Source of the DNA: Planctomycetales bacterium 71-10
GTDB lineage: Bacteria; Planctomycetota; Planctomycetia; Isosphaerales; Isosphaeraceae
Length of the DNA: 64,000 bases
NCBI GenBank assembly: GCA_001898385.1
Contig: MKTT01000061.1
Span: forward strand, 22,856-86,855
Direction: 5' to 3'
Below the pieces are notes generated by a model. It was not told the origin of the DNA, did not search any database, and saw only the letters and a list, made by a program, of their open reading frames with translations. Position 1 is the stretch's first letter. Every line of letters begins with the position of its first letter. Positions 37,011 through 47,316 of the stretch are shown one piece after another. The translations under genes and the position numbers were made by a program.

Positions 37011-38706
37011 TCAGAAGAACATCGCGAACCGCATCCAGAAGGTGTTGTACTGGTCGATCGACCCCGGGCCCGCGATCGGGATGGGGTTGTTGAACCAGGT
37101 CCAGACGTAATTGAAGCTGATGCGCGTGTACTTGTTGGGCCACCAGTTCAGGCCGGTCATGAGGCTGTCCATCCGCTCGGTGGAGCGGGCGACGTCCACG
37201 AAGCCGCGGTCGATGTCGCCGCGGCCGGCGTTGAACTCGGACCACTGGGCGGCGACCTGCCAGGCCCCCGGGCCGTACTCGCCGCGGCCGGGGATGAACG
37301 AATGGAGCGGCTCCATCACCGTGTAGCCCTGGAAGCCGTTGCCCATGAAGTCGCGCTCGCCGGTGAGCCAGTAGGACGCGTTGACGTAGTAGGCCCACTG
37401 CGTCGAGCGGCCGGTGGTGCGGCCGTCGGTCAGCTCGCGGCTGAAGTTCATCATCTCGGCCAGGACGCTGAACCGGCCGTACCAGTAGATGTGAGGCGCG
37501 ACCCGGGACCGCATGCCGTCGGCCCAGACGTTCTGGTTGTAGATGTACCAGGGGAGCCCGACGGGGGTCACGAAGCTGGGGTTCGTGGTCGCCTCGCCGT
37601 TGTTCAGGAACGCGATGCTCGACTGATGCAGGGCGTACTTCTGGTCGCCGGCCGACATGCCGATGCCGCCGCCCAGCCCCTCGAAGATCGAGTCGTGCCA
37701 CGCCTCGCCGCGGAAGGGGGTGAAGTCGACGGCACCGTTGTACTCGACGTTCCGGTTCAGGTCGCCGAACAGGCTCGTCCCCGTGTTCGTCACGCCCGAC
37801 CACCACTGCATCCGGTTGTCCAGAGCCGTGCCGCTGAACATGAGCCCGATGGGGCGCTTGGCGGCCAGCTGGAACAGCGGCGAGTTCGTGATGACCGGCT
37901 CCAGCGCCGGGGAGAAGGCGTAGTACTCGTAGAGCGGCGGGGCCAGGCCCTTGCCGGCGCGGAGGGTGATGTTCTTCGTCAGGTGCCAGGACATGAACAT
38001 GTCGAGAAGGTTGTAGGTCCCGAGGAAGCCCTGCGTGCCGACCTGGTAGCTCCAGTCCTTGGTGATGTTCCCGTAGAAATACATACGGGTGAAAGGGATG
38101 TTGAAATTCTGCTCGTTGGTGGGGAGGTTGGCGCGGTCGAAGAAGGTGCCGTCGAGGGTGAGCTGGTTCGTGATGTTGAGCGAGAACTCGTCGTTCTCGT
38201 CGCTGAAGCTGAAGTAGCCGCCGCCGCCGTTGGGGCCGGTGCCGTCGTGGTGGTATTTGTAGAGGCCCGACAGGGGATGGCGGTCGGCGTCGGGGGGCTC
38301 GCCTTGGTCCGGGCCGAAGGTGCCGGAGTGGTAGCGATTCGGGACTCCGTTGGAGCCCTCCCCGGACGGCGCGGACGCCGCGCCTGGCGCCCCGAGCCCG
38401 GGGGATCCCGCGCCCCCCCCGACGGCGGCCGTCCCGGCGCCGCCGACGGTCGCGGATTGGAGCTGGTGCTGGAGGGCCTCCACCTGGGCCTTGAGCTGGT
38501 GGGCCTCGGCGACCTCGGCGCGGAGGCGGCGGAGTTCGGCCAGGATCTCCGCATCGGTGGCCGAGGCGGGGGACTCCGGCGGGGTCGTCCCGGCCGGGAT
38601 CGGGGGTGCGTAGGGGGGTCTGCCCGTGCGAAGGAGCGGCGCAAATGCCCCAGCCGATCAGTACGCCGGCGAAGACCCCGCCAATCCGCGCAACCCGATG
38701 AGCCAT
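37011..38706 (-). pseudogene. Outer-membrane porin (OprO/OprP-like) interrupted by a 1-nt frameshift
   Basis: Signal peptide MAHRVARIGG...SHGQ (ATG 38706) is one frame off the coiled coil plus beta-barrel ORF, which ends ...WMRFAMFF; the barrel frame has an upstream TGA and no start before GTG 38483; removing one base of G6 (38613-38618) fuses the two. Confidence 0.75.
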
Positions 38707-38912
38707 GACGCCCTCCCTTGGGGCCGGAGCGATCCTCGAACACCGCCCGGGGGCGGTCGATGGGCCTGACGATCTTTACGGTGGTATCGATCGAGGGGGC
38801 CGTCCGGCATGACGAATTATTCAGCGGCACTGCCCGATTGATTCGAACGCGGGGTTCTGAGATGCTCGGGACGTGGGCTGTAGGATTCTTCATCTGGGAC
38901 GGTCGTCGACAC

Positions 38913-39821
38913 ATGGGTCGGTTCGAATCACTCGCCCCTCGCTCCGGCGAGGACGCCCAGCACGCGGCGCGGGTCGCCCTGCGAGGCGTCGGCCAGATCA
39001 TGTTCCAGGGGCACGCCGGGACCGGCCTGTTCTTCCTGGCGGGGATCGCCCTGGCGTCGCCGGCGATGCTTGCGGGGGCGATCCTGGGCGCGGCGATCGG
39101 CCCGCTCGTCGCCCGCCTCGCCGGCTTCGATCGGGACGGGCTGGAGCAGGGGCTCTACGGGTTCAACTCGACGCTCGTCGGGCTGGCGACGCCGGTCTTC
39201 CTGAAGCCCTCGCACCCGCTGACCTGGCTCCTGGCCGCGGCCGGCTGCGCGGCGGCGACGTTCCTGACGCGGCTGGCGGGGCGATATCTCAAGTTCCCGG
39301 CCTACACCGCGCCGTTCGTCGTGACGACGTGGCTGGTGCTCCTGTCGGCCCACGGGCTGATGGGGCATGCCATCGACGCCCCCGCGCCGCCGACGGTCAT
39401 CGAGGAGGGCGGGTTCCTCTCGGCCGTGCTGCGCGGCGAGGCCGAGGTGATGCTGGGGGCGAACGCGCTGACGGGCGTGCTGTTCCTGGCCGGCATCGCG
39501 ATCAGCAACCCCTGGCACGCGGCGATGGCGCTGATGGGCTCGCTGGTGGGGACGGCCGTGGCCGTCTACCACGGCGACCCGGACGCGCCGGTGTCGGTGG
39601 GCCTGTACGGGTACAACGCCTCGCTCGCCGCGATGGCCCTGTTCCTGCCGCGGCCGTCGCTGACGCTCCCGCTGCTGGCGGCCGTGGCCTCGACCCCGCT
39701 GACGGAATTCTTCCCCAAGTCCCTGGGGATCCCGGCCCTGACCGCCCCGTTCGTGGTCGCGGCCTGGCTGGTGCTGCTCGCGACCTGGGCCGAGCGGCGG
39801 CTGTTCGGGACGCGAGACTGA
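38913..39821 (+). CDS. Urea transporter (UT/Yut family)
   Basis: [39 protein letters not shown] duplicated UT signature; about 10 TM; start could be 38862. Confidence 0.9.
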
Positions 39822-39856
39822 CCCCCCCGGGAAACGCCTGGATTCGGAGACGGCCC

Positions 39857-40159
39857 ATGCACCTGACCCCCCGCGAGATCGAGAAGCTGATGATCCATCA
39901 GCTCGCCGACGTCGCCCACCGGCGCAAGGCGAAAGGCCTGAAGCTCAACCACCCGGAGTCCATGGCCGTCATCTGCGCCGCGGCCCTGGAGGGCGCCCGC
40001 GAGGGGAAGACGGTCGAGGAGGTCATGAAGGAGGCCGCGACCGTCCTGACCCGCGCGGACGTGATGGATGGGGTCGCCGACATGATCCCGTTCGTCCAGC
40101 TCGAGGCGATCTTCACCGACGGCAGCCGCCTCGTCACCGTCCACGACCCGATCAAGTGA
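39857..40159 (+). CDS. ureA: Urease subunit gamma
   Basis: [11 protein letters not shown]...LKLNHPE...EGAREG...LVTVHDPI (100 aa). Confidence 0.96.
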
Positions 40160-40187
40160 CCCCCCACCGCGAGACCGGAGGCGAACC

Positions 40188-40679
40188 ATGGCCGAGCCCG
40201 AGAAGCAGCCGGATGAGCCCGGCGTCGGCGACTGGAAGGAGGGGCATCCCGACGCCCCGCCGCACGTCAGCGCCAGCGCCAAGAAGGTCCCCGTCGGCGG
40301 CGTAGTCCTCGCGCCGGGCGAGATCGAGCTCAACGCCGGACGCCCGACGACGACCCTGAAGGTCCGGAACACCGGCGACCGCCCCATCCAGGTCGGCTCG
40401 CACTTCCACTTCTTCGAGGTCAACCGCTACCTGGAGTTCGACCGCGAGGCGGCGTTCGGCCGGCGGCTCGACATCCCGGCCACGACGGCCATCCGGTTCG
40501 AGCCGGGGGATGAGAAGGAAGTGACGCTCGTCCCGATGGGGGGCAAGCAGTTCTGCTTCGGGTTCAACAACCTCGTCGACGGTTGGACCGGCGACGGCCC
40601 GACGCCCGACTACCGGCCGAACCGCGAGGCGGCCGTCCGGCGGGCGAAGGATAGGGGCTACAAGTCGAGCGGGTCCTGA
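40188..40679 (+). CDS. ureB: Urease subunit beta
   Basis: [34 protein letters not shown]. Confidence 0.96.
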
Positions 40680-40698
40680 CGAGGGGGGTGGTAAGGCC

Positions 40699-42417
40699 AT
40701 GTCGAAGATCTCGCGCAAGCAATACGCGGACCTGTTCGGCCCGACCGTCGGCGACAAGGTCCGCCTGGGCGACACCGACCTGTACGTCGAGATCGAGCGC
40801 GACCTGCGCGTCTACGGCGACGAGCTGGTGTGCGGCGGCGGCAAGACGCTCCGGGACGGGATGGGCTCGGACAACAACCTGACCCAGGAGGCCGGCTGCC
40901 TCGACCTGGTGATCACCAACGTCACGATCCTCGACCCGCTCCTGGGCGTCCTGAAGGCCGACGTCGGCATCCGCAACGGTCGGATCGTCGGCGTCGGCAA
41001 GGCGGGCAACCCCAGCACGATGGACGGCGTGACGCCCGGCCTGACGACCGGCACCGCGACCGACGCCATCACGGGCGAGCACCTGATCCTGACCGCGGCC
41101 GGGATGGACACCCACGTCCACTACATCTGCCCGCAGCAGGCGTGGGACGCCCTCTCCAACGGGGTCACGACCCTCTGGGGCGGCGGCATCGGGCCCACCG
41201 ACGGGACCAACGGCGTCACCTCCACCAACGGCCCCTGGAACCTGGAGATGATGCTCCGGTCCGTCGAGGGCCTGCCGCTCAACTTCGGCTTCCAGGGGAA
41301 GGGGAACGCCAGCGCGCCCGGCCCGCTCGTCGAGCAGCTCCGCGCCGGCGCCGCCGGGTTCAAGATCCACGAGGACTACGGCACCACGCCGGCCGCGATC
41401 CGGTCGTGCCTCTCCATCGCCGACGAATACGACGTGAGCGTCGCCGTCCACACGGATACGCTCAACGAGTCCGGCTTCGTGGAGGACTCGATCGCCGCGT
41501 TCGACGGCCGCACCGTCCACACCTACCACTCCGAGGGCGCCGGCGGCGGCCACGCGCCCGACCTGCTGAAGGTGGTCGGCCAGCCCAACATCCTCCCCAG
41601 CTCGACCAACCCGACGCTCCCCTGCGGCGTCAACTCGGTGGCCGAGCTGTTCGACATGATCATGGTCTGCCACAACCTCAACCCCCGGATCCCCTCCGAC
41701 GTCGCCTTCGCCGAGAGCCGCGTCCGGGCCGAGACCATCGTGGCCGAGAGCGTCCTGCACGACATGGGCGCCATCTCCATGATCGGCAGCGACTCGCAGG
41801 CCATGGGGCGCATCGGCGAGAACTTCCTCCGCGCCGTCCAGACGGCCGACGCCATGAAGAAGGCCCGCGGCCAGCTCCCCGAGGACGCCCCCGGCAACGA
41901 CAACTTCCGCGTCCTCCGCTACCTGGCCAAGGTGACGCTCAACCCGTGCATCACCGCCGGCATCTCCGAGCACCTGGGCTCGATCGCCCCGGGCAAGATG
42001 GCCGACCTGGTCCTCTGGGAGCCCGCCTTCTTCGGCGCCAAGCCCAAGATGGTCCTCAAGGGGGGCTTCGTCGTCTGGGCCAACATGGGCGACCCCAACG
42101 CGTCGCTCCCCACGCCCCAGCCGATGTACTACCGGCCCATGTTCGGCGCCTTCGGCTCGGCGCTGGCCAAGACCTGCACGACCTTCGTCTCCCGCGCGGC
42201 ATACGATTTGAACGTCAAGGAGAAGTACGGCCTCCAGCGGTCCGTCGAGCCGGTCTCGCAGACGCGGGTCCTGACCAAGCACCACATGGTCCGCAACGGC
42301 CTGGTGCCGAAGATCGACGTCGACCCCCAGACCTTCGCCGTGAAGGTCGACGGCGTCCACGCGACGGTCACGCCGCCGAAGTCGATCTCGCTCAACCAGC
42401 TCTACTTCTTCTGCTGA
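40699..42417 (+). CDS. ureC: Urease subunit alpha
   Basis: Ni ligands intact: [36 protein letters not shown]; flap MVCHNL. Confidence 0.98.
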
Positions 42418-42442
42418 TCCCGCGAGGGCGGCGGGGGGGACC

Positions 42443-43006
42443 ATGATCCTCATCGAACGACCGCTGGGCAACGCCGACGATCCGGCGTGGGCCCAGCTCC
42501 TGGAGGGGGCCGTCGTCGACCCCCTCGACCTCGACCAGTGGCAGGCCCAGAAGAACCGGTTCCGCCTCAAGACGGAGTCCGGCGTCGAGGTGGCCGTCGC
42601 GCTGGAGCGGAACACCCGCCTCCGCGACGGCGACGTCCTCGCCTGGGACGAGCCCAACCTGACGGCGATCGTCGCGCGCGTCAGCCTGAAGGAGGTCATG
42701 GTCCTGCGCCTCGACGGCCTGCTCGGCAGGCCGCCGGAGGAGCTGGCCCGGACCTGCGTGGAGCTGGGCCACGCGCTGGGGAACCAGCACTGGCCGGCCG
42801 TCTTCAAGGGGGGGGCCGTGTACGTCCCGCTGACGGTCGACCGCAAGGTGATGGCCTCGGTCATGAAGACCCACGCCTTCGAGGGGATCTCCTGCGAGTT
42901 CATCCCCGGCTCCGAGGCGATCCCGTACCTGGCCCCTCACGAGGCCCGCCGGCTGTTCGGCGGCGCCGGCGCGACGCCCCACTCGCACACGCCGCCGTCG
43001 CCATGA
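42443..43006 (+). CDS. ureE: Urease accessory protein UreE
   Basis: LRDGDVL, GHALGNQHWP; follows ureC; no long His tail. Confidence 0.9.
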   Translation: MILIERPLGNADDPAWAQLLEGAVVDPLDLDQWQAQKNRFRLKTESGVEVAVALERNTRLRDGDVLAWDEPNLTAIVARVSLKEVMVLRLDGLLGRPPEELARTCVELGHALGNQHWPAVFKGGAVYVPLTVDRKVMASVMKTHAFEGISCEFIPGSEAIPYLAPHEARRLFGGAGATPHSHTPPSP

Positions 43007-43046
43007 GCCGCCGGACCGGCCCCGCACCCCAGCCCCCGGAGGACGC

Positions 43047-43736
43047 TTGGCGACGATCGCGGAACTGATGCGCGTCCTCCAGTTCGGCGACTCGCTGCTG
43101 CCGATCGGGGCCTTCTCGTTCTCGAACGGCCTGGAGACGGCCGTGCAGCTCGGCGTCGTGCGCGACGTGGGGACGCTGCGCGCGTTCGTCCGCTCGGCCG
43201 TCGACCAGGCGGCGACCTCCGACGGCCTGGCCGTCCTCGCGGCCCACCGCGCCGCCGCGGCCGGCGACGCCGACGGGGTCGACCGCGCCGACCGGGCCGT
43301 CTTCGACCGCAAGCTGAACGAGGAGATGCGGACCATGACCGTCCGCATGGGCCGCAAGCTCGCCGAGATGGCCGGGCGCGTCCTGGGCCGGTCGGCCGCG
43401 GCCGATTGGCTGGGCCGGATCAAGGCCGGCGCGACGCCGGGATGCCTCCCCGTGGGGCAGGCCCTCGTCTTCGCCGACCTCGGCCTGTCGGAGCGCGACG
43501 CCTTCGCCGTCCACCAGTACGGCGTGGCCACGATGATGGTCAACGCCTCGCTCCGGCTGATGAAGGTGCACTACCTGGATGCGCAGGCGATCCTGTTCGA
43601 GGTCAACGAGCTCGCCGGGGCCGCCTACGACCGCGCCGCGGGCCTCGGCCTGGGCGACATGGCCGCCTTCGCGCCCGAGTTCGACGTCCTGGCGTCGCTG
43701 CACGTCCGGGCGCACGTCCGCATGTTCATGAATTGA
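43047..43736 (+). CDS. ureF: Urease accessory protein UreF
   Basis: QFGDSLLPIGAFSFSNGLE, C-terminal HVRMFMN; TTG start after GGAGG. Confidence 0.92.
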   Translation: MATIAELMRVLQFGDSLLPIGAFSFSNGLETAVQLGVVRDVGTLRAFVRSAVDQAATSDGLAVLAAHRAAAAGDADGVDRADRAVFDRKLNEEMRTMTVRMGRKLAEMAGRVLGRSAAADWLGRIKAGATPGCLPVGQALVFADLGLSERDAFAVHQYGVATMMVNASLRLMKVHYLDAQAILFEVNELAGAAYDRAAGLGLGDMAAFAPEFDVLASLHVRAHVRMFMN

Positions 43737-43745
43737 GGTTCGATC

Positions 43746-44384
43746 ATGGCCAGGAACATCACGCGGATCGGCGTCGGCGGCCCGGTCGGGTCGGGGAAGA
43801 CGGCGATCATCGAGGCGATCACGCCCAAGCTCCTCGACCTCGGCGCCCGGGTGCTCATCATCACCAACGACGTCGTCACGACCGAGGACGCCAAGCAGGT
43901 CCGCCGGACGCTCAAGGGGATCCTGGTCGAGGAGCGGATCATCGGCGTCGAGACCGGCGCCTGCCCGCACACGGCCGTCCGCGAGGACCCCAGCATGAAC
44001 CTCGCCGCCGTCGAGGACATGGAGGCCCGCTTCCCCGACACCGACGTCGTCCTGATCGAGAGCGGCGGCGACAACCTCACGCTCACCTTCAGCCCGGCGC
44101 TGGTGGACTTCTTCATCTACGTCATCGACGTCGCCGCCGGCGACAAGATCCCGCGCAAGAACGGCCCGGGGATCTGCCAGTCGGACATCCTGGTGATCAA
44201 CAAGACCGACCTGGCCCCCTACGTCGGCGCCAGCCTGGAGGTCATGGACCGCGACTCCAGGCTGATGCGCGGGGAGAAGCCCTTCGTCTTCACCAACTGC
44301 AAGACCGGCGAGGGGATCGACCGCCTCATCGACGTGATCCGCGAGAACGTCCTGTTCGACCTGGCGACGAAGGATACCGCGTGA
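43746..44384 (+). CDS. ureG: Urease accessory GTPase UreG
   Basis: [32 protein letters not shown]. Confidence 0.96.
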
Positions 44385-45295
44385 GCCCCGCATCGACGCC
44401 CCACGAGCTGCTCCCGTACCTCGACGAGCCGCCGCAACTCCCCGTCGGGTCGTTCGGCAAGGATGCTCACCTGCGCCTGCGCTTCGAGCCCCGCGGCGAG
44501 CGCTCCATCCTGGCGGTGATGGAGCGTCGCGCGCCGCTGCTGGTGCAGAAGGCCCTGTACTGCGACGAGGGGATGCCCGGCCTGCCGGTCGTCTTCATCA
44601 TCACGAACTCCGGCGGCGTCCTCCAGGGCGATCGCTACACGATGGACTTCGCCGTCGCCGCCGGGGCCTGCGGCCACGTCACCACCCAGGCCGCGACCAA
44701 GATCCACGAGATGGACGCCAACCACGCCGTCCAGACGCAGGAGATCACGCTGGAGGACGGCGCGTACCTGGAATACCTCCCCGAGCCCGTCATCCCCTTC
44801 GCCCGTTCGCGATTCCTCACGCGGACGAGGGTCCGCATCGCGCCGACGGCCACGCTCCTCTATGCGGAGACGCTGATGGGGGGGCGGAAGTATTATCGCG
44901 ACGGCGAGCTGTTCCGGTTCGACCTCTTCTCGTCGACCGTGGCCGGCGAGCGGCCCGACGGGTCGAGCCTGTTCGTCGAGAAGTTCGTGATCGAGCCGGA
45001 CCGCTCCCCCGTCCCTCGTCCGGGCGTGATGGGGGATTTCGACGTCTTCGGCAACGTCCTGCTGCTGACGCCGCCGGCCGTCGCCGACGCCGTCGCGGAG
45101 CGGGCGGCCTCGGCGTGGAATCGCGAGGAAGGCTGGGCCGCGGGCGTCGGACGGCTGCCGAACGGGGCGGGGCTGGTCTACAAGATCATCGCCCGCGAGA
45201 CCAGCGTCGTCCGCGCGAAGATCCGCGACTTCTGGTCGATCGTCCGCCCCGAGGTCGTCGGCCTCCCGGTGCCGCCGGAATACCCCTGGCGCTGA
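44381..45295 (+). CDS. ureD: Urease accessory protein UreD
   Basis: GTGA overlap with ureG; [26 protein letters not shown]. Confidence 0.92.
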
Positions 45296-45347
45296 GGGCG
45301 AGGCGGCCGTCTTCCGCATCCTTGCGCCCGATGTGTGGGAGGTTCGC

Positions 45348-46523
45348 ATGGCCGACTTGCCGAGGCGGGAATTCCTGGGCGGTGCCGGCGTGGCCGCGGC
45401 CGTCGCGGCGATGGCCGCCTCGAAGGAGGCCGCGGCGGGCGACCCCAGCTTCCTGAACAACGTCCCCGACGACGTCCTCGCCGGTCGCGAGCTGCCGACG
45501 TTCAAGTTCGAGCTAGAGAAGTCCCAGGGCAAGGTGATCGGCGGCAGCTACGGCAAGGAGGCGACGGTCGAGCAACTGCCGATCTCCAAGGGGATCGCCG
45601 GCGTCTCGATGAAGCTGGAGCCGGGCGCGATGCGCGAGCTGCACTGGCACGCCACGGCCGCCGAATGGGCCTTCGTCATCGGGGGCCGCGTCCGCACGAC
45701 CGTCATCGACCCGGAGGGGGGGGCCGAGACGAACGACTTCAACCCCGGCGACGTCTGGTACTTCCCGCGCGGGCACGGCCACGTCCTCGAATGCCTGGGC
45801 GACGAGCCCACGCACTTCATCCTCATCTTCGACAACGGCTACTTCTCCGAGTTCGGCACGTTCAGCATCAGCGACTGGATCGGCCACGCGCCCAGGGCCC
45901 TCCTCGCCAAGAACTTCGGCCTGCCCGAATCCGCCTTCGACGGCTTCCCGAAGGAGGAGGTCTACTTCGCCCGCGGCGCGAAGCCGCCCGAGCCCCCGCG
46001 GGCTCCGCTCCAGGGCTGGAAGGCCCCGGCGCTCACGCACAGGTACGAGTTGCTCAAGCGCCCGCCCCACCGGACGTTCAAGGGCGGTCGCGAGTGGCGG
46101 GTGGATTCGACGACGTTCCCGATCTCGAAGACCGTGGCGGGCGTCGTGCTCGACCTGGAGCCGGGGGCCCTGCGCGAGCTGCACTGGCACCCGACGGCCG
46201 ACGAGTGGCAGTACGTCATTGAGGGGGACGTCTCGGTCACGATGTTCGGCTCGCACGGCCGCTTCCGCACCGAGACGCTTTCCAAGGGGGACGTCGGCTA
46301 CATCCCCCAGGGGTACGGGCACTCGATCGAGAACGTGGGGGAGAGGCCGGCCCGCGTCCTCATCGGCTTCAACACGGGAGTCTACGCGACCATCGACCTC
46401 TCGCAGTGGATCGCCGGCAACCCGGCCGACGTCCTGGCGACGAACTTCGGCAAGCCGGCCGAGCTGTTCGAGAAGTTCCCGCGCAAGGACGTGTTCATCG
46501 CCCCGCCGCCGGAGGGCGACTGA
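45348..46523 (+). CDS. oxdC: Tat-exported oxalate decarboxylase family bicupin
   Basis: PRREFLG Tat leader; two RELHWH...EW cupin Mn sites; lid SEFGT keeps the Glu. Confidence 0.85.
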   Translation: MADLPRREFLGGAGVAAAVAAMAASKEAAAGDPSFLNNVPDDVLAGRELPTFKFELEKSQGKVIGGSYGKEATVEQLPISKGIAGVSMKLEPGAMRELHWHATAAEWAFVIGGRVRTTVIDPEGGAETNDFNPGDVWYFPRGHGHVLECLGDEPTHFILIFDNGYFSEFGTFSISDWIGHAPRALLAKNFGLPESAFDGFPKEEVYFARGAKPPEPPRAPLQGWKAPALTHRYELLKRPPHRTFKGGREWRVDSTTFPISKTVAGVVLDLEPGALRELHWHPTADEWQYVIEGDVSVTMFGSHGRFRTETLSKGDVGYIPQGYGHSIENVGERPARVLIGFNTGVYATIDLSQWIAGNPADVLATNFGKPAELFEKFPRKDVFIAPPPEGD

Positions 46524-46548
46524 GCGACGGGCGGCCCGCGGCCCTCGT

Positions 46549-47316
46549 TCAGAGGGTCGCGAGGTAGCCGCCGTCCACCGGCAGGGCGACGCCGGTGATG
46601 TAGTCGCTGGCCGGGCTGGCGAGGAAGACCGCCGCGCCGGCCATGTCGGCGGGCTTGGCCCAGCGGCCCTTGGCGATGCGCGACAGCACGCGCTCGTGCA
46701 GGCCGGGGACCTGCTGACGGGCGGCGATGGTCATCTCGGTGTCGAACCAGCCGGGGAGGATGGCGTTCACCTGGATGTCGTCGGCCGCCCAGGCCAGCGC
46801 CAGGCTCTTGGTGAGCTGGACGATGGCACCCTTGGAGGTCGCGTAGGCCGCGGCGAACGACGAGCCCAGGACCGACGTCATGCTGCCGGTGTTGACGATC
46901 TTCCCGCCCCCCTGGCGCTTCATCCAGGGGTAGACGGCCTGCGACGCCAGGAACGCCGAGGTGACGTTGGCGTTCATGACCTCGTTCCACTCCTCCAGCG
47001 TGAAGTCCTGCGGGGCGCGCCGGATGTTGATGCCGGCGTTGTTGAACAGGGCGTCGATCCGGCCGAAGCGCCCGCCGGCCTCGGCGACGGCCCGCTCGAC
47101 GTCCTCGGGCTTGCAGAGGTCGGCGACGACGGCCAGGGCCTTGGAGCCGGTCTTCTCCTCGATCTCGGCGGCGGCGCGGCGGGTCTTCTCGGCGTCGCGG
47201 CCCACCACGGCGACCGACGCGCCGGCCTCCGCCAGCCCCAGGGCCATCCCCAGGCCGATGCCGCCGTTGCCCCCGGTGACGATCGCGGTCTTTCCCGACA
47301 GGTCGAACAGGCTCAA
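46549..47316 (-). CDS. SDR oxidoreductase (KduD/gluconate 5-dehydrogenase-like)
   Basis: TGGNGGIG, NNAG, YATSK, NAILPG; TTG start after GGGAG. Confidence 0.9.
   Translation of the reverse strand: MSLFDLSGKTAIVTGGNGGIGLGMALGLAEAGASVAVVGRDAEKTRRAAAEIEEKTGSKALAVVADLCKPEDVERAVAEAGGRFGRIDALFNNAGINIRRAPQDFTLEEWNEVMNANVTSAFLASQAVYPWMKRQGGGKIVNTGSMTSVLGSSFAAAYATSKGAIVQLTKSLALAWAADDIQVNAILPGWFDTEMTIAARQQVPGLHERVLSRIAKGRWAKPADMAGAAVFLASPASDYITGVALPVDGGYLATL

Follow-up and report, generated by a model that had tools for sequence, protein, structure and literature searches.

A urease locus and an oxalate decarboxylase-family gene probably brought together by a deletion in an Isosphaeraceae planctomycete

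The 64,000-nucleotide stretch of Planctomycetales bacterium 71-10 analysed here (contig MKTT01000061.1, positions 22,856 to 86,855; hereafter the window) carries on its plus strand a gene for a urea channel, the urease genes ureABCEFGD and, close behind ureD, a gene for a bicupin of the oxalate decarboxylase family (oxdC), with an outer-membrane porin gene diverging from the channel gene. Does this arrangement represent a selected unit, or have unrelated genes merely come to lie next to each other? An earlier note, made from the sequence alone, had proposed a co-regulated, envelope-spanning acid-resistance unit. That proposal largely fails: the tight linkage is unique to this genome in our synteny search, and an oxdC homologue within 10 kb was found at 0/80 other loci with this urease type (the best 80 of at least 590 relatives of this UreC, obtained by scanning one genome per species and examined with 10-kb flanks). 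We consider it probable that two independent modules stand side by side, one for urea uptake and hydrolysis and the other an MncA-like bicupin, and that their 52-bp proximity is an accident of deletion.

The ureD-oxdC junction

Forty relatives were searched for OxdC and UreC, and the loci were compared by mapping all window proteins; genomes and loci are denoted by handles such as G005 and L013, this genome being G000. The layout common to the genus would read phosphoribosyltransferase (PRTase), hydrolase, Ere-like gene, porin (-), UT channel, ureABCEFGD, R2K ATP-grasp, kinase (-), extracytoplasmic function (ECF) sigma factor (-), oxdC, short-chain dehydrogenase (SDR) (-) and M29 peptidase, where (-) marks the strand opposite to the urease genes. 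Between ureD and oxdC, G005 carries R2K, a Ser/Thr kinase and a Sigma70_ECF gene in a spacer of 4.1 kb, and G003 carries the kinase and the ECF factor in 3.3 kb; R2K was not recognised in G003, where a 254-aa open reading frame (ORF) lacking a Pfam match occupies its position. As the kinase and ECF genes of G005 and G003 lie on the opposite strand, divergent from oxdC, the urease genes and oxdC cannot form one operon in these genomes. G008 has R2K alone in the spacer (0.95 kb), the ECF/kinase control pair being lost both there and in the genome under study.

Elsewhere the two sets of genes part company altogether. The urease is present in G006, where ureD is followed directly by the SDR gene and oxdC is missing. 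G001 has lost the porin and urease genes and kept R2K, kinase, ECF factor, a di-haem cytochrome c peroxidase (CCP) gene and oxdC; an 81-residue ureE remnant between its hydrolase gene and R2K (L020:15063-15305) is the scar of a deletion in which most of the urease operon was lost together with UT, porin and Ere-like gene. In G007 the urease block and the ECF-kinase-oxdC-SDR-M29 block are found on different contigs, in G004 urease and oxdC are 6 Mb apart, and in four other genera of the family both genes are present and unlinked. With these variable spacers, independent losses and unlinked copies, and with 0/80 in the wider survey, we find no adjacency of urease and oxdC across genomes beyond that expected from shared ancestry.

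Within the window, the ureD stop codon and the oxdC ATG are separated by 52 bp on the same strand. Since the sister genomes carry 0.95-4.1 kb at this point, the junction would have been made by a recent, lineage-specific deletion, and from the comparison it appears to be a deletion scar found in this genome alone. An orthologue of the kinase was not found in this genome (best match 46%, compared with 70-77% for orthologues), nor was one of R2K (best match 37%; true kinase and R2K orthologues reach 70-79%). Because the genome is 99.9% complete and holds neither orthologue anywhere, these genes were deleted and not moved. With the ATP-grasp, kinase and sigma genes gone, oxdC would thus have come to lie 52 bp from ureD, a position that is an accident of deletion and not an evolved acid-resistance operon. 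The locus illustrates that a short intergenic gap in a single genome, taken without a synteny check, is no proof of an evolved operon.

R2K itself directly follows ureD in sister genomes, overlapping the ureD stop codon in G008, and survives in G001 without the urease. Its coordinates are L013:12951-13715 (+), L014:13259-14053 (+) and L020:13456-14187 (-); it is not among the 80 other urease loci, nor in this genome.

How oxdC is now transcribed bears on what the deletion may have achieved. No terminator-like site is present between ureD and oxdC, where folding is no better than in shuffles (z = 0.27). Because the gap is only 52 bp, on one strand and free of a terminator, co-transcription by read-through is plausible in this genome, and oxdC would now probably be read from the urease promoter. 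A sigma-70 promoter and terminator scan over 36.8-47.6 kb was uninformative: it returned no promoter, and its only two terminator-like sites, both on the minus strand within ureC, were fewer than shuffled sequence gave.

Alternatively, oxdC may have kept or gained a promoter of its own in the 3' end of ureD, in which case it would be expressed independently of the urease and the neighbourhood would carry no regulatory meaning. The sequence before oxdC still resembles the orthologous leader, that of G008, for only about 35 nt upstream of the ATG; this remnant speaks for such a promoter, as does the poor predictability of promoters in high-GC planctomycetes, the scan having missed even the conserved element in front of the UT gene. 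However, the ancestral intergenic region common to G005 and G003 is gone and 45100-45347 contains no promoter-like site, and we regard a separate oxdC promoter as unlikely.

If read-through does occur, the deletion of about 1-4 kb might have created a new operon, in which oxdC, having lost its own ECF-sigma/kinase control, came under the urease promoter; proton consumption driven by urea in the cytoplasm and by oxalate in the periplasm would then be co-expressed and would jointly aid survival in acidic, oxalate-rich surroundings. The chance that this is so is small in our estimate; if true, a deletion-born urease-oxdC operon would be a case of natural operon birth with a physiological pay-off.

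The same deletion could instead mark a stage in the decay of oxdC. The genomes can be arranged in a graded series, from G005 and G003 (kinase and ECF factor present, with R2K in G005) through G008 (kinase and ECF factor lost) and G000 (R2K also lost) to G006 (oxdC also lost), and the UreC tree groups G000 with G008 and G006, albeit weakly (80/36). On this account oxdC, deprived of its ECF/kinase regulator, would be poorly expressed or silent in this sublineage, a step towards the loss seen in G006. Yet the gene is intact, its catalytic residues and twin-arginine translocation (Tat) motif are complete, and it is 85-88% identical to its orthologues, much as its neighbours are to theirs, which makes impending loss very improbable.

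Genes of the locus

The window has about 70% G+C, and spurious ORFs are therefore plentiful; genes were for this reason identified by profile searches. All those named in the earlier note (porin, UT, ureABCEFGD and bicupin) are present, and the seven urease proteins UreA, UreB, UreC, UreE, UreF, UreG and UreD each score above the Pfam gathering threshold. The features, in window coordinates, are as follows.

37011-38483, minus strand: Porin_O_P outer-membrane porin, barrel and end of the N-terminal coiled coil (PF07396, 39.7 bits against a cut-off of 20.9)
38590-38706, minus strand: porin signal peptide, out of frame with the barrel (three-frame translation)
38785-38866, plus strand: conserved elements of the divergent porin/UT intergenic region (six-genome alignment)
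38913-39821, plus strand: UT-family urea channel (Pfam UT, 215.9 bits)
39857-40159, plus strand: ureA, urease gamma subunit (PF00547, 143 bits, full length)
40188-40679, plus strand: ureB, urease beta subunit with an N-terminal extension (PF00699, 147 bits; NF009682, 141 bits against a cut-off of 129)
40699-42417, plus strand: ureC, urease alpha subunit of the Yersinia/ure2 type (NF009834, 1117 bits against a cut-off of 1001)
42443-43006, plus strand: ureE (UreE_N and UreE_C domains)
43047-43736, plus strand: ureF (PF01730, 114.7 bits)
43746-44384, plus strand: ureG, GTPase (cobW/HypB/UreG domain, 114.7 bits; orthologues 87-93% identical)
44381-45295, plus strand: ureD (PF01774, 165.7 bits; start supported by a 304-aa orthologue ORF)
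45296-45347, plus strand: 52-bp ureD-oxdC junction, with a GGGAGG ribosome-binding site and no terminator
45348-46523, plus strand: oxdC, MncA-like member of the oxalate decarboxylase family with two cupin domains and a Tat signal (TIGR03404, 344 bits; cut-off 254)
46534-46565, no strand assigned: GC-rich hairpin with a 13-bp stem, where oxdC and the SDR gene converge (z = -1.9 against shuffles)
46549-47316, minus strand: SDR, convergent with oxdC (adh_short_C2, 201 bits; syntenic with oxdC in the sisters)

The ureD start is GTG 44381, which overlaps the ureG stop codon (GTGA). At the other end, the convergent SDR gene on the minus strand means that oxdC closes the plus-strand run, and the hairpin behind it, which has no U tract, is a putative terminator.

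From these assignments a route for urea can be drawn. Through the porin, whose gene is broken in this assembly, urea would cross the outer membrane; the UT channel would take it across the inner membrane, and a cytoplasmic Ni urease, UreABC, matured by UreEFGD, would split it into ammonia and CO2. Porin-UT-ureABCEFGD, as judged from gene order, appears to be the conserved module in Isosphaeraceae-like planctomycetes.

The outer-membrane porin named earlier stands as far as the Porin_O_P match and the divergent orientation go, and orthologues that are 60-85% identical occupy the same position in six sister genomes. Its reading frame does not hold together in this assembly: the signal peptide, from ATG 38706, is in another frame than the barrel, and the barrel frame is closed upstream by a stop codon, with GTG 38483 as its first possible start. 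One reading frame runs through signal peptide, Pro-rich linker (GQTP..PPIPAG) and coiled coil in G003, G005, G006, G007 and G008; the break here falls between the residues equivalent to GQTP and PPIPAG, at or near a run of six G at 38613-38618. It may be an error of assembly at the homopolymer or else a true frameshift.

A homologous porin also adjoins the urease in L027, L028 and L040 (a Tautonia sp., Aquisphaera insulae and one unclassified metagenome-assembled genome), and in L049 and L052 it is placed after ureD on the same strand, a different arrangement. That the porin has been kept beside the urease through a rearrangement supports, at the level of gene position, a functional tie between the two. 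The 'Kuenenia' label of L049 and L052 was not accepted as evidence for anammox bacteria: the contigs have 67% G+C and their binning is doubtful. Outer-membrane porins genetically linked to urea and amide use have a precedent in FmdC (bioRxiv 10.1101/138586; PMC5877670), the short-chain amide/urea porin of Methylophilus methylotrophus that is also annotated in comammox Nitrospira. The planctomycete porin likewise adjoins urease genes, in two arrangements; in contrast to FmdC, what is established for it is Porin_O_P membership, the likeness is one of association only, and the gene is frame-broken in this assembly.

In the longest ORF of the UT gene, the Pfam match begins at residue 85; the start was set at ATG 38913 from alignments of orthologues. 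The protein had been likened to the UT/Yut channels. It belongs to the UT family, as its 215.9 bits indicate, but with 171.7 bits on the Yut equivalog model TIGR03441 it stays below the cut-off of 274.6 and is not a Yut equivalog.

Two elements between the porin and UT genes are conserved in an alignment of six genus genomes: a TATCGATCG box at 38785-38793, and TTGATT-17 nt-GATGCT with an upstream TG at 38838-38866, before UT. We infer from their conservation that they are a candidate operator and a candidate sigma-70-like promoter, respectively; a consensus promoter scan gave no call on either.

Urease type and distribution

The urease is complete and its nickel ligands are intact, as had been noted. 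In the alignment of UreC with PDB entry 4Z42 the HxH motif, the carbamylated Lys, a further two His, the Asp and the flap His are all identical. The best solved relatives are 4Z42 and 6YL3, both from Yersinia enterocolitica, at 925 bits, compared with about 700-727 bits for the remaining ureases. This UreC shares with 4Z42 the flap motif MVCHNL (not MVCHHL), and its score places it in the PRK13309 (NF009834) equivalog group. It is thus of the type described for Yersinia and for Brucella ure2, as the earlier note had recognised.

The likeness extends to the whole cluster. Y. enterocolitica ureABCEFGD with yut and Brucella ure2 have the gene order, an NF009834 UreC, MVCHNL, an extended UreB and a UT neighbour in common with the window, and the Brucella ure2 operon has been described as ureABCEFGDT-nikKMLQO (PMC2868824). 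In contrast to both, the UT gene of the window is upstream of ureA and not after ureD, and its product is about 35% identical to proteobacterial UTs and under the Yut cut-off; nik genes do not adjoin the cluster, a divergent porin does, and the host is an environmental planctomycete without a second urease.

A UT gene is nearly universal at the 80 loci of the wider survey. Planctomycetota and one Nitrospira lineage have it upstream of ureA; in Proteobacteria, Bacteroidota and other groups it comes after ureD instead. The nearest relatives of this urease belong to Nitrospira and other environmental lineages.

In a UreC tree built from loci L013-L111, this type groups with Brucella anthropi, Morganella and Providencia, apart from the second type that the genus carries. 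A clade with 100/100 support, sister to the other Planctomycetota, unites the Isosphaeraceae sequences with those of one Nitrospira lineage (86-89% identity) and with the Rhizobiales ure2 type, Brucella anthropi among them; the enterobacterial copies are more distant. On horizontal transfer, raised by the earlier note, the grouping across phyla with Nitrospira and Rhizobiales is borne out and hints at transfer of UreC among three phyla, possibly out of Planctomycetota; monophyly of the Isosphaeraceae sequences is not rejected by the approximately unbiased (AU) test (p = 0.198), so that transfer may have run in either direction. Acquisition of the planctomycete urease from Proteobacteria was considered and set aside: the Isosphaeraceae copies adjoin other Planctomycetota, with the Nitrospira lineage and Rhizobiales ure2 close or nested.

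The genome has one UreC and hence a sole urease. A second type, 55% identical, occurs additionally in four sister genomes, and G001 has that type alone. An UrtA-like protein is encoded on another contig, with a score under the cut-off.

The bicupin

Behind the urease genes, the TIGR03404 match confirms the family to which the earlier note had assigned oxdC. The comparison with Bacillus subtilis OxdC drawn there needs correction: the nearest structure is 2VQA, MncA (Sll1358) of Synechocystis PCC 6803, with 327 bits, as opposed to 277 bits for B. subtilis OxdC. Alignment to 5VG3 and 2VQA indicates that both His-His-Glu-His Mn sites are kept, as is the Arg before each of them, and the N-terminal lid Glu is present (SEFGT here, SENST in OxdC). 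From ATG 45348, the conserved start, the leader reads P-R-R-E-F-L, continues with a hydrophobic stretch and ends rich in Ala; the twin-arginine motif is conserved in five orthologues, and the RR-leader bicupin directly after ureD on the same strand is as first described.

MncA has been described (PMC11742986) as a protein that traps its Mn in the cytoplasm, is exported by Tat and, once in the periplasm, works as a Mn(II)-dependent oxalate decarboxylase, so that a Tat-exported oxalate decarboxylase is already a known kind of enzyme. By analogy with MncA, the planctomycete bicupin is predicted to fold and bind Mn in the cytoplasm, to be exported by Tat and to convert periplasmic oxalate to formate and CO2. 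The two proteins agree in bicupin fold, both Mn sites, twin-arginine leader and family. They differ in that identity is about 50%, and in context, which is an ECF/kinase pair in the relatives of this genome and the urease here; activity, metal and location of the planctomycete protein are predictions. B. subtilis OxdC (YvrK) shares the Arg, His, His, Glu and His of the N-terminal site and the lid Glu; unlike the bicupin of the window, it has no Tat leader. No oxalyl-CoA decarboxylase scored above the cut-off in this genome. A Tat-exported oxalate decarboxylase of Agrobacterium was left out of account, as nothing on it was found in the library searched.

Acid resistance or nitrogen supply

The features described above could also be taken at face value, as a selected and co-regulated acid-resistance unit made up of porin, UT channel, urease and Tat-exported OxdC, with one reaction in the cytoplasm and another in the periplasm consuming protons. 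Urease and oxdC do share one strand and a 52-bp gap without a terminator, the lid Glu and Mn ligands of the bicupin are intact, the urease type is tied to acid survival in Yersinia and Brucella, and the two genes are neighbours in 4/9 genus genomes. The tight junction is, however, confined to this genome and deletion-made, opposite-strand genes intervene in G005 and G003, one or the other partner was lost independently (G006, G001) or is unlinked (G007, G004), and oxdC was met at 0/80 other loci; moreover, the porin gene is frame-broken and close relatives of the urease occur in nitrifiers. We judge such a unit decidedly unlikely.

Several observations nevertheless weigh against our preferred explanation of two independent modules. 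OxdC-type enzymes are acid-active. Urease and oxdC lie within 7 kb of each other in those 4/9 genomes, and a loose functional association between them is possible on these grounds. Read-through from the urease genes, on which the present-day expression of oxdC would depend, is inferred from spacing and the missing hairpin alone. No sigma-54-like nitrogen-control motif was seen upstream of UT in the six-genome porin/UT alignment. This genome yields 54 kinase matches, and with planctomycetes so rich in kinases the ECF/kinase adjacency to oxdC could be partly chance. Finally, the Yersinia-type urease and Brucella UreT have been tied to acid survival by experiment (PMC7547064, PMC2868824), a role that may by analogy extend to the planctomycete proteins.

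The urease type is nonetheless not diagnostic of acid survival, because it occurs in nitrifiers as well and is the sole urease of this genome. Since no other urease is available to the cell, it most likely serves mainly to supply nitrogen from urea; acid buffering may be a side benefit. As the urease type, the UT channel and Tat-exported Mn oxalate decarboxylases each belong to a kind already known, and a local accident has linked them so tightly, we attach little mechanistic weight to the arrangement; a modest interest resides in the deletion-made junction and in the ECF/kinase and peroxidase association of oxdC in the relatives.

Partners of oxdC in related genomes

A divergent ECF-sigma/kinase pair is found beside oxdC in four genomes, at L013:14401-16832 (G005), L015:6300-8716 (G003), L016:10580-12978 (G007) and L020:11000-13413 (G001). 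A second oxdC paralogue of G001 (L021:10140-13780), 80% identical to the first, is likewise accompanied by such a pair, and its kinase is 39% identical to the first kinase. ECF factors encoded beside Ser/Thr kinases are a recognised regulatory type. Taken together, these gene neighbourhoods suggest that the native regulator of oxdC in the genus is the ECF/kinase pair and that the gene belongs to a periplasmic stress module.

A parallel is provided by B. subtilis, where oxdC is induced through, and depends on, the two-part alternative sigma factor SigO-RsoA (PMC8103513). In the planctomycete relatives, too, an alternative sigma factor is encoded beside oxdC; here, by contrast, the regulator consists of Sigma70_ECF and a Ser/Thr kinase, and it is deleted in the genome under study. 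That an oxalate decarboxylase is natively governed by an ECF-sigma/Ser-Thr-kinase pair, sometimes together with a periplasmic peroxidase, is thus a testable hypothesis paralleling SigO-RsoA in Bacillus.

The peroxidase in question is encoded by a di-haem CCP gene (CCP_MauG) that immediately precedes oxdC, in the same orientation, in G007 (L016:9376-10557, minus strand) and G001 (L020:9796-11271, minus strand). Its position next to oxdC suggests a candidate periplasmic peroxide/oxalate module.

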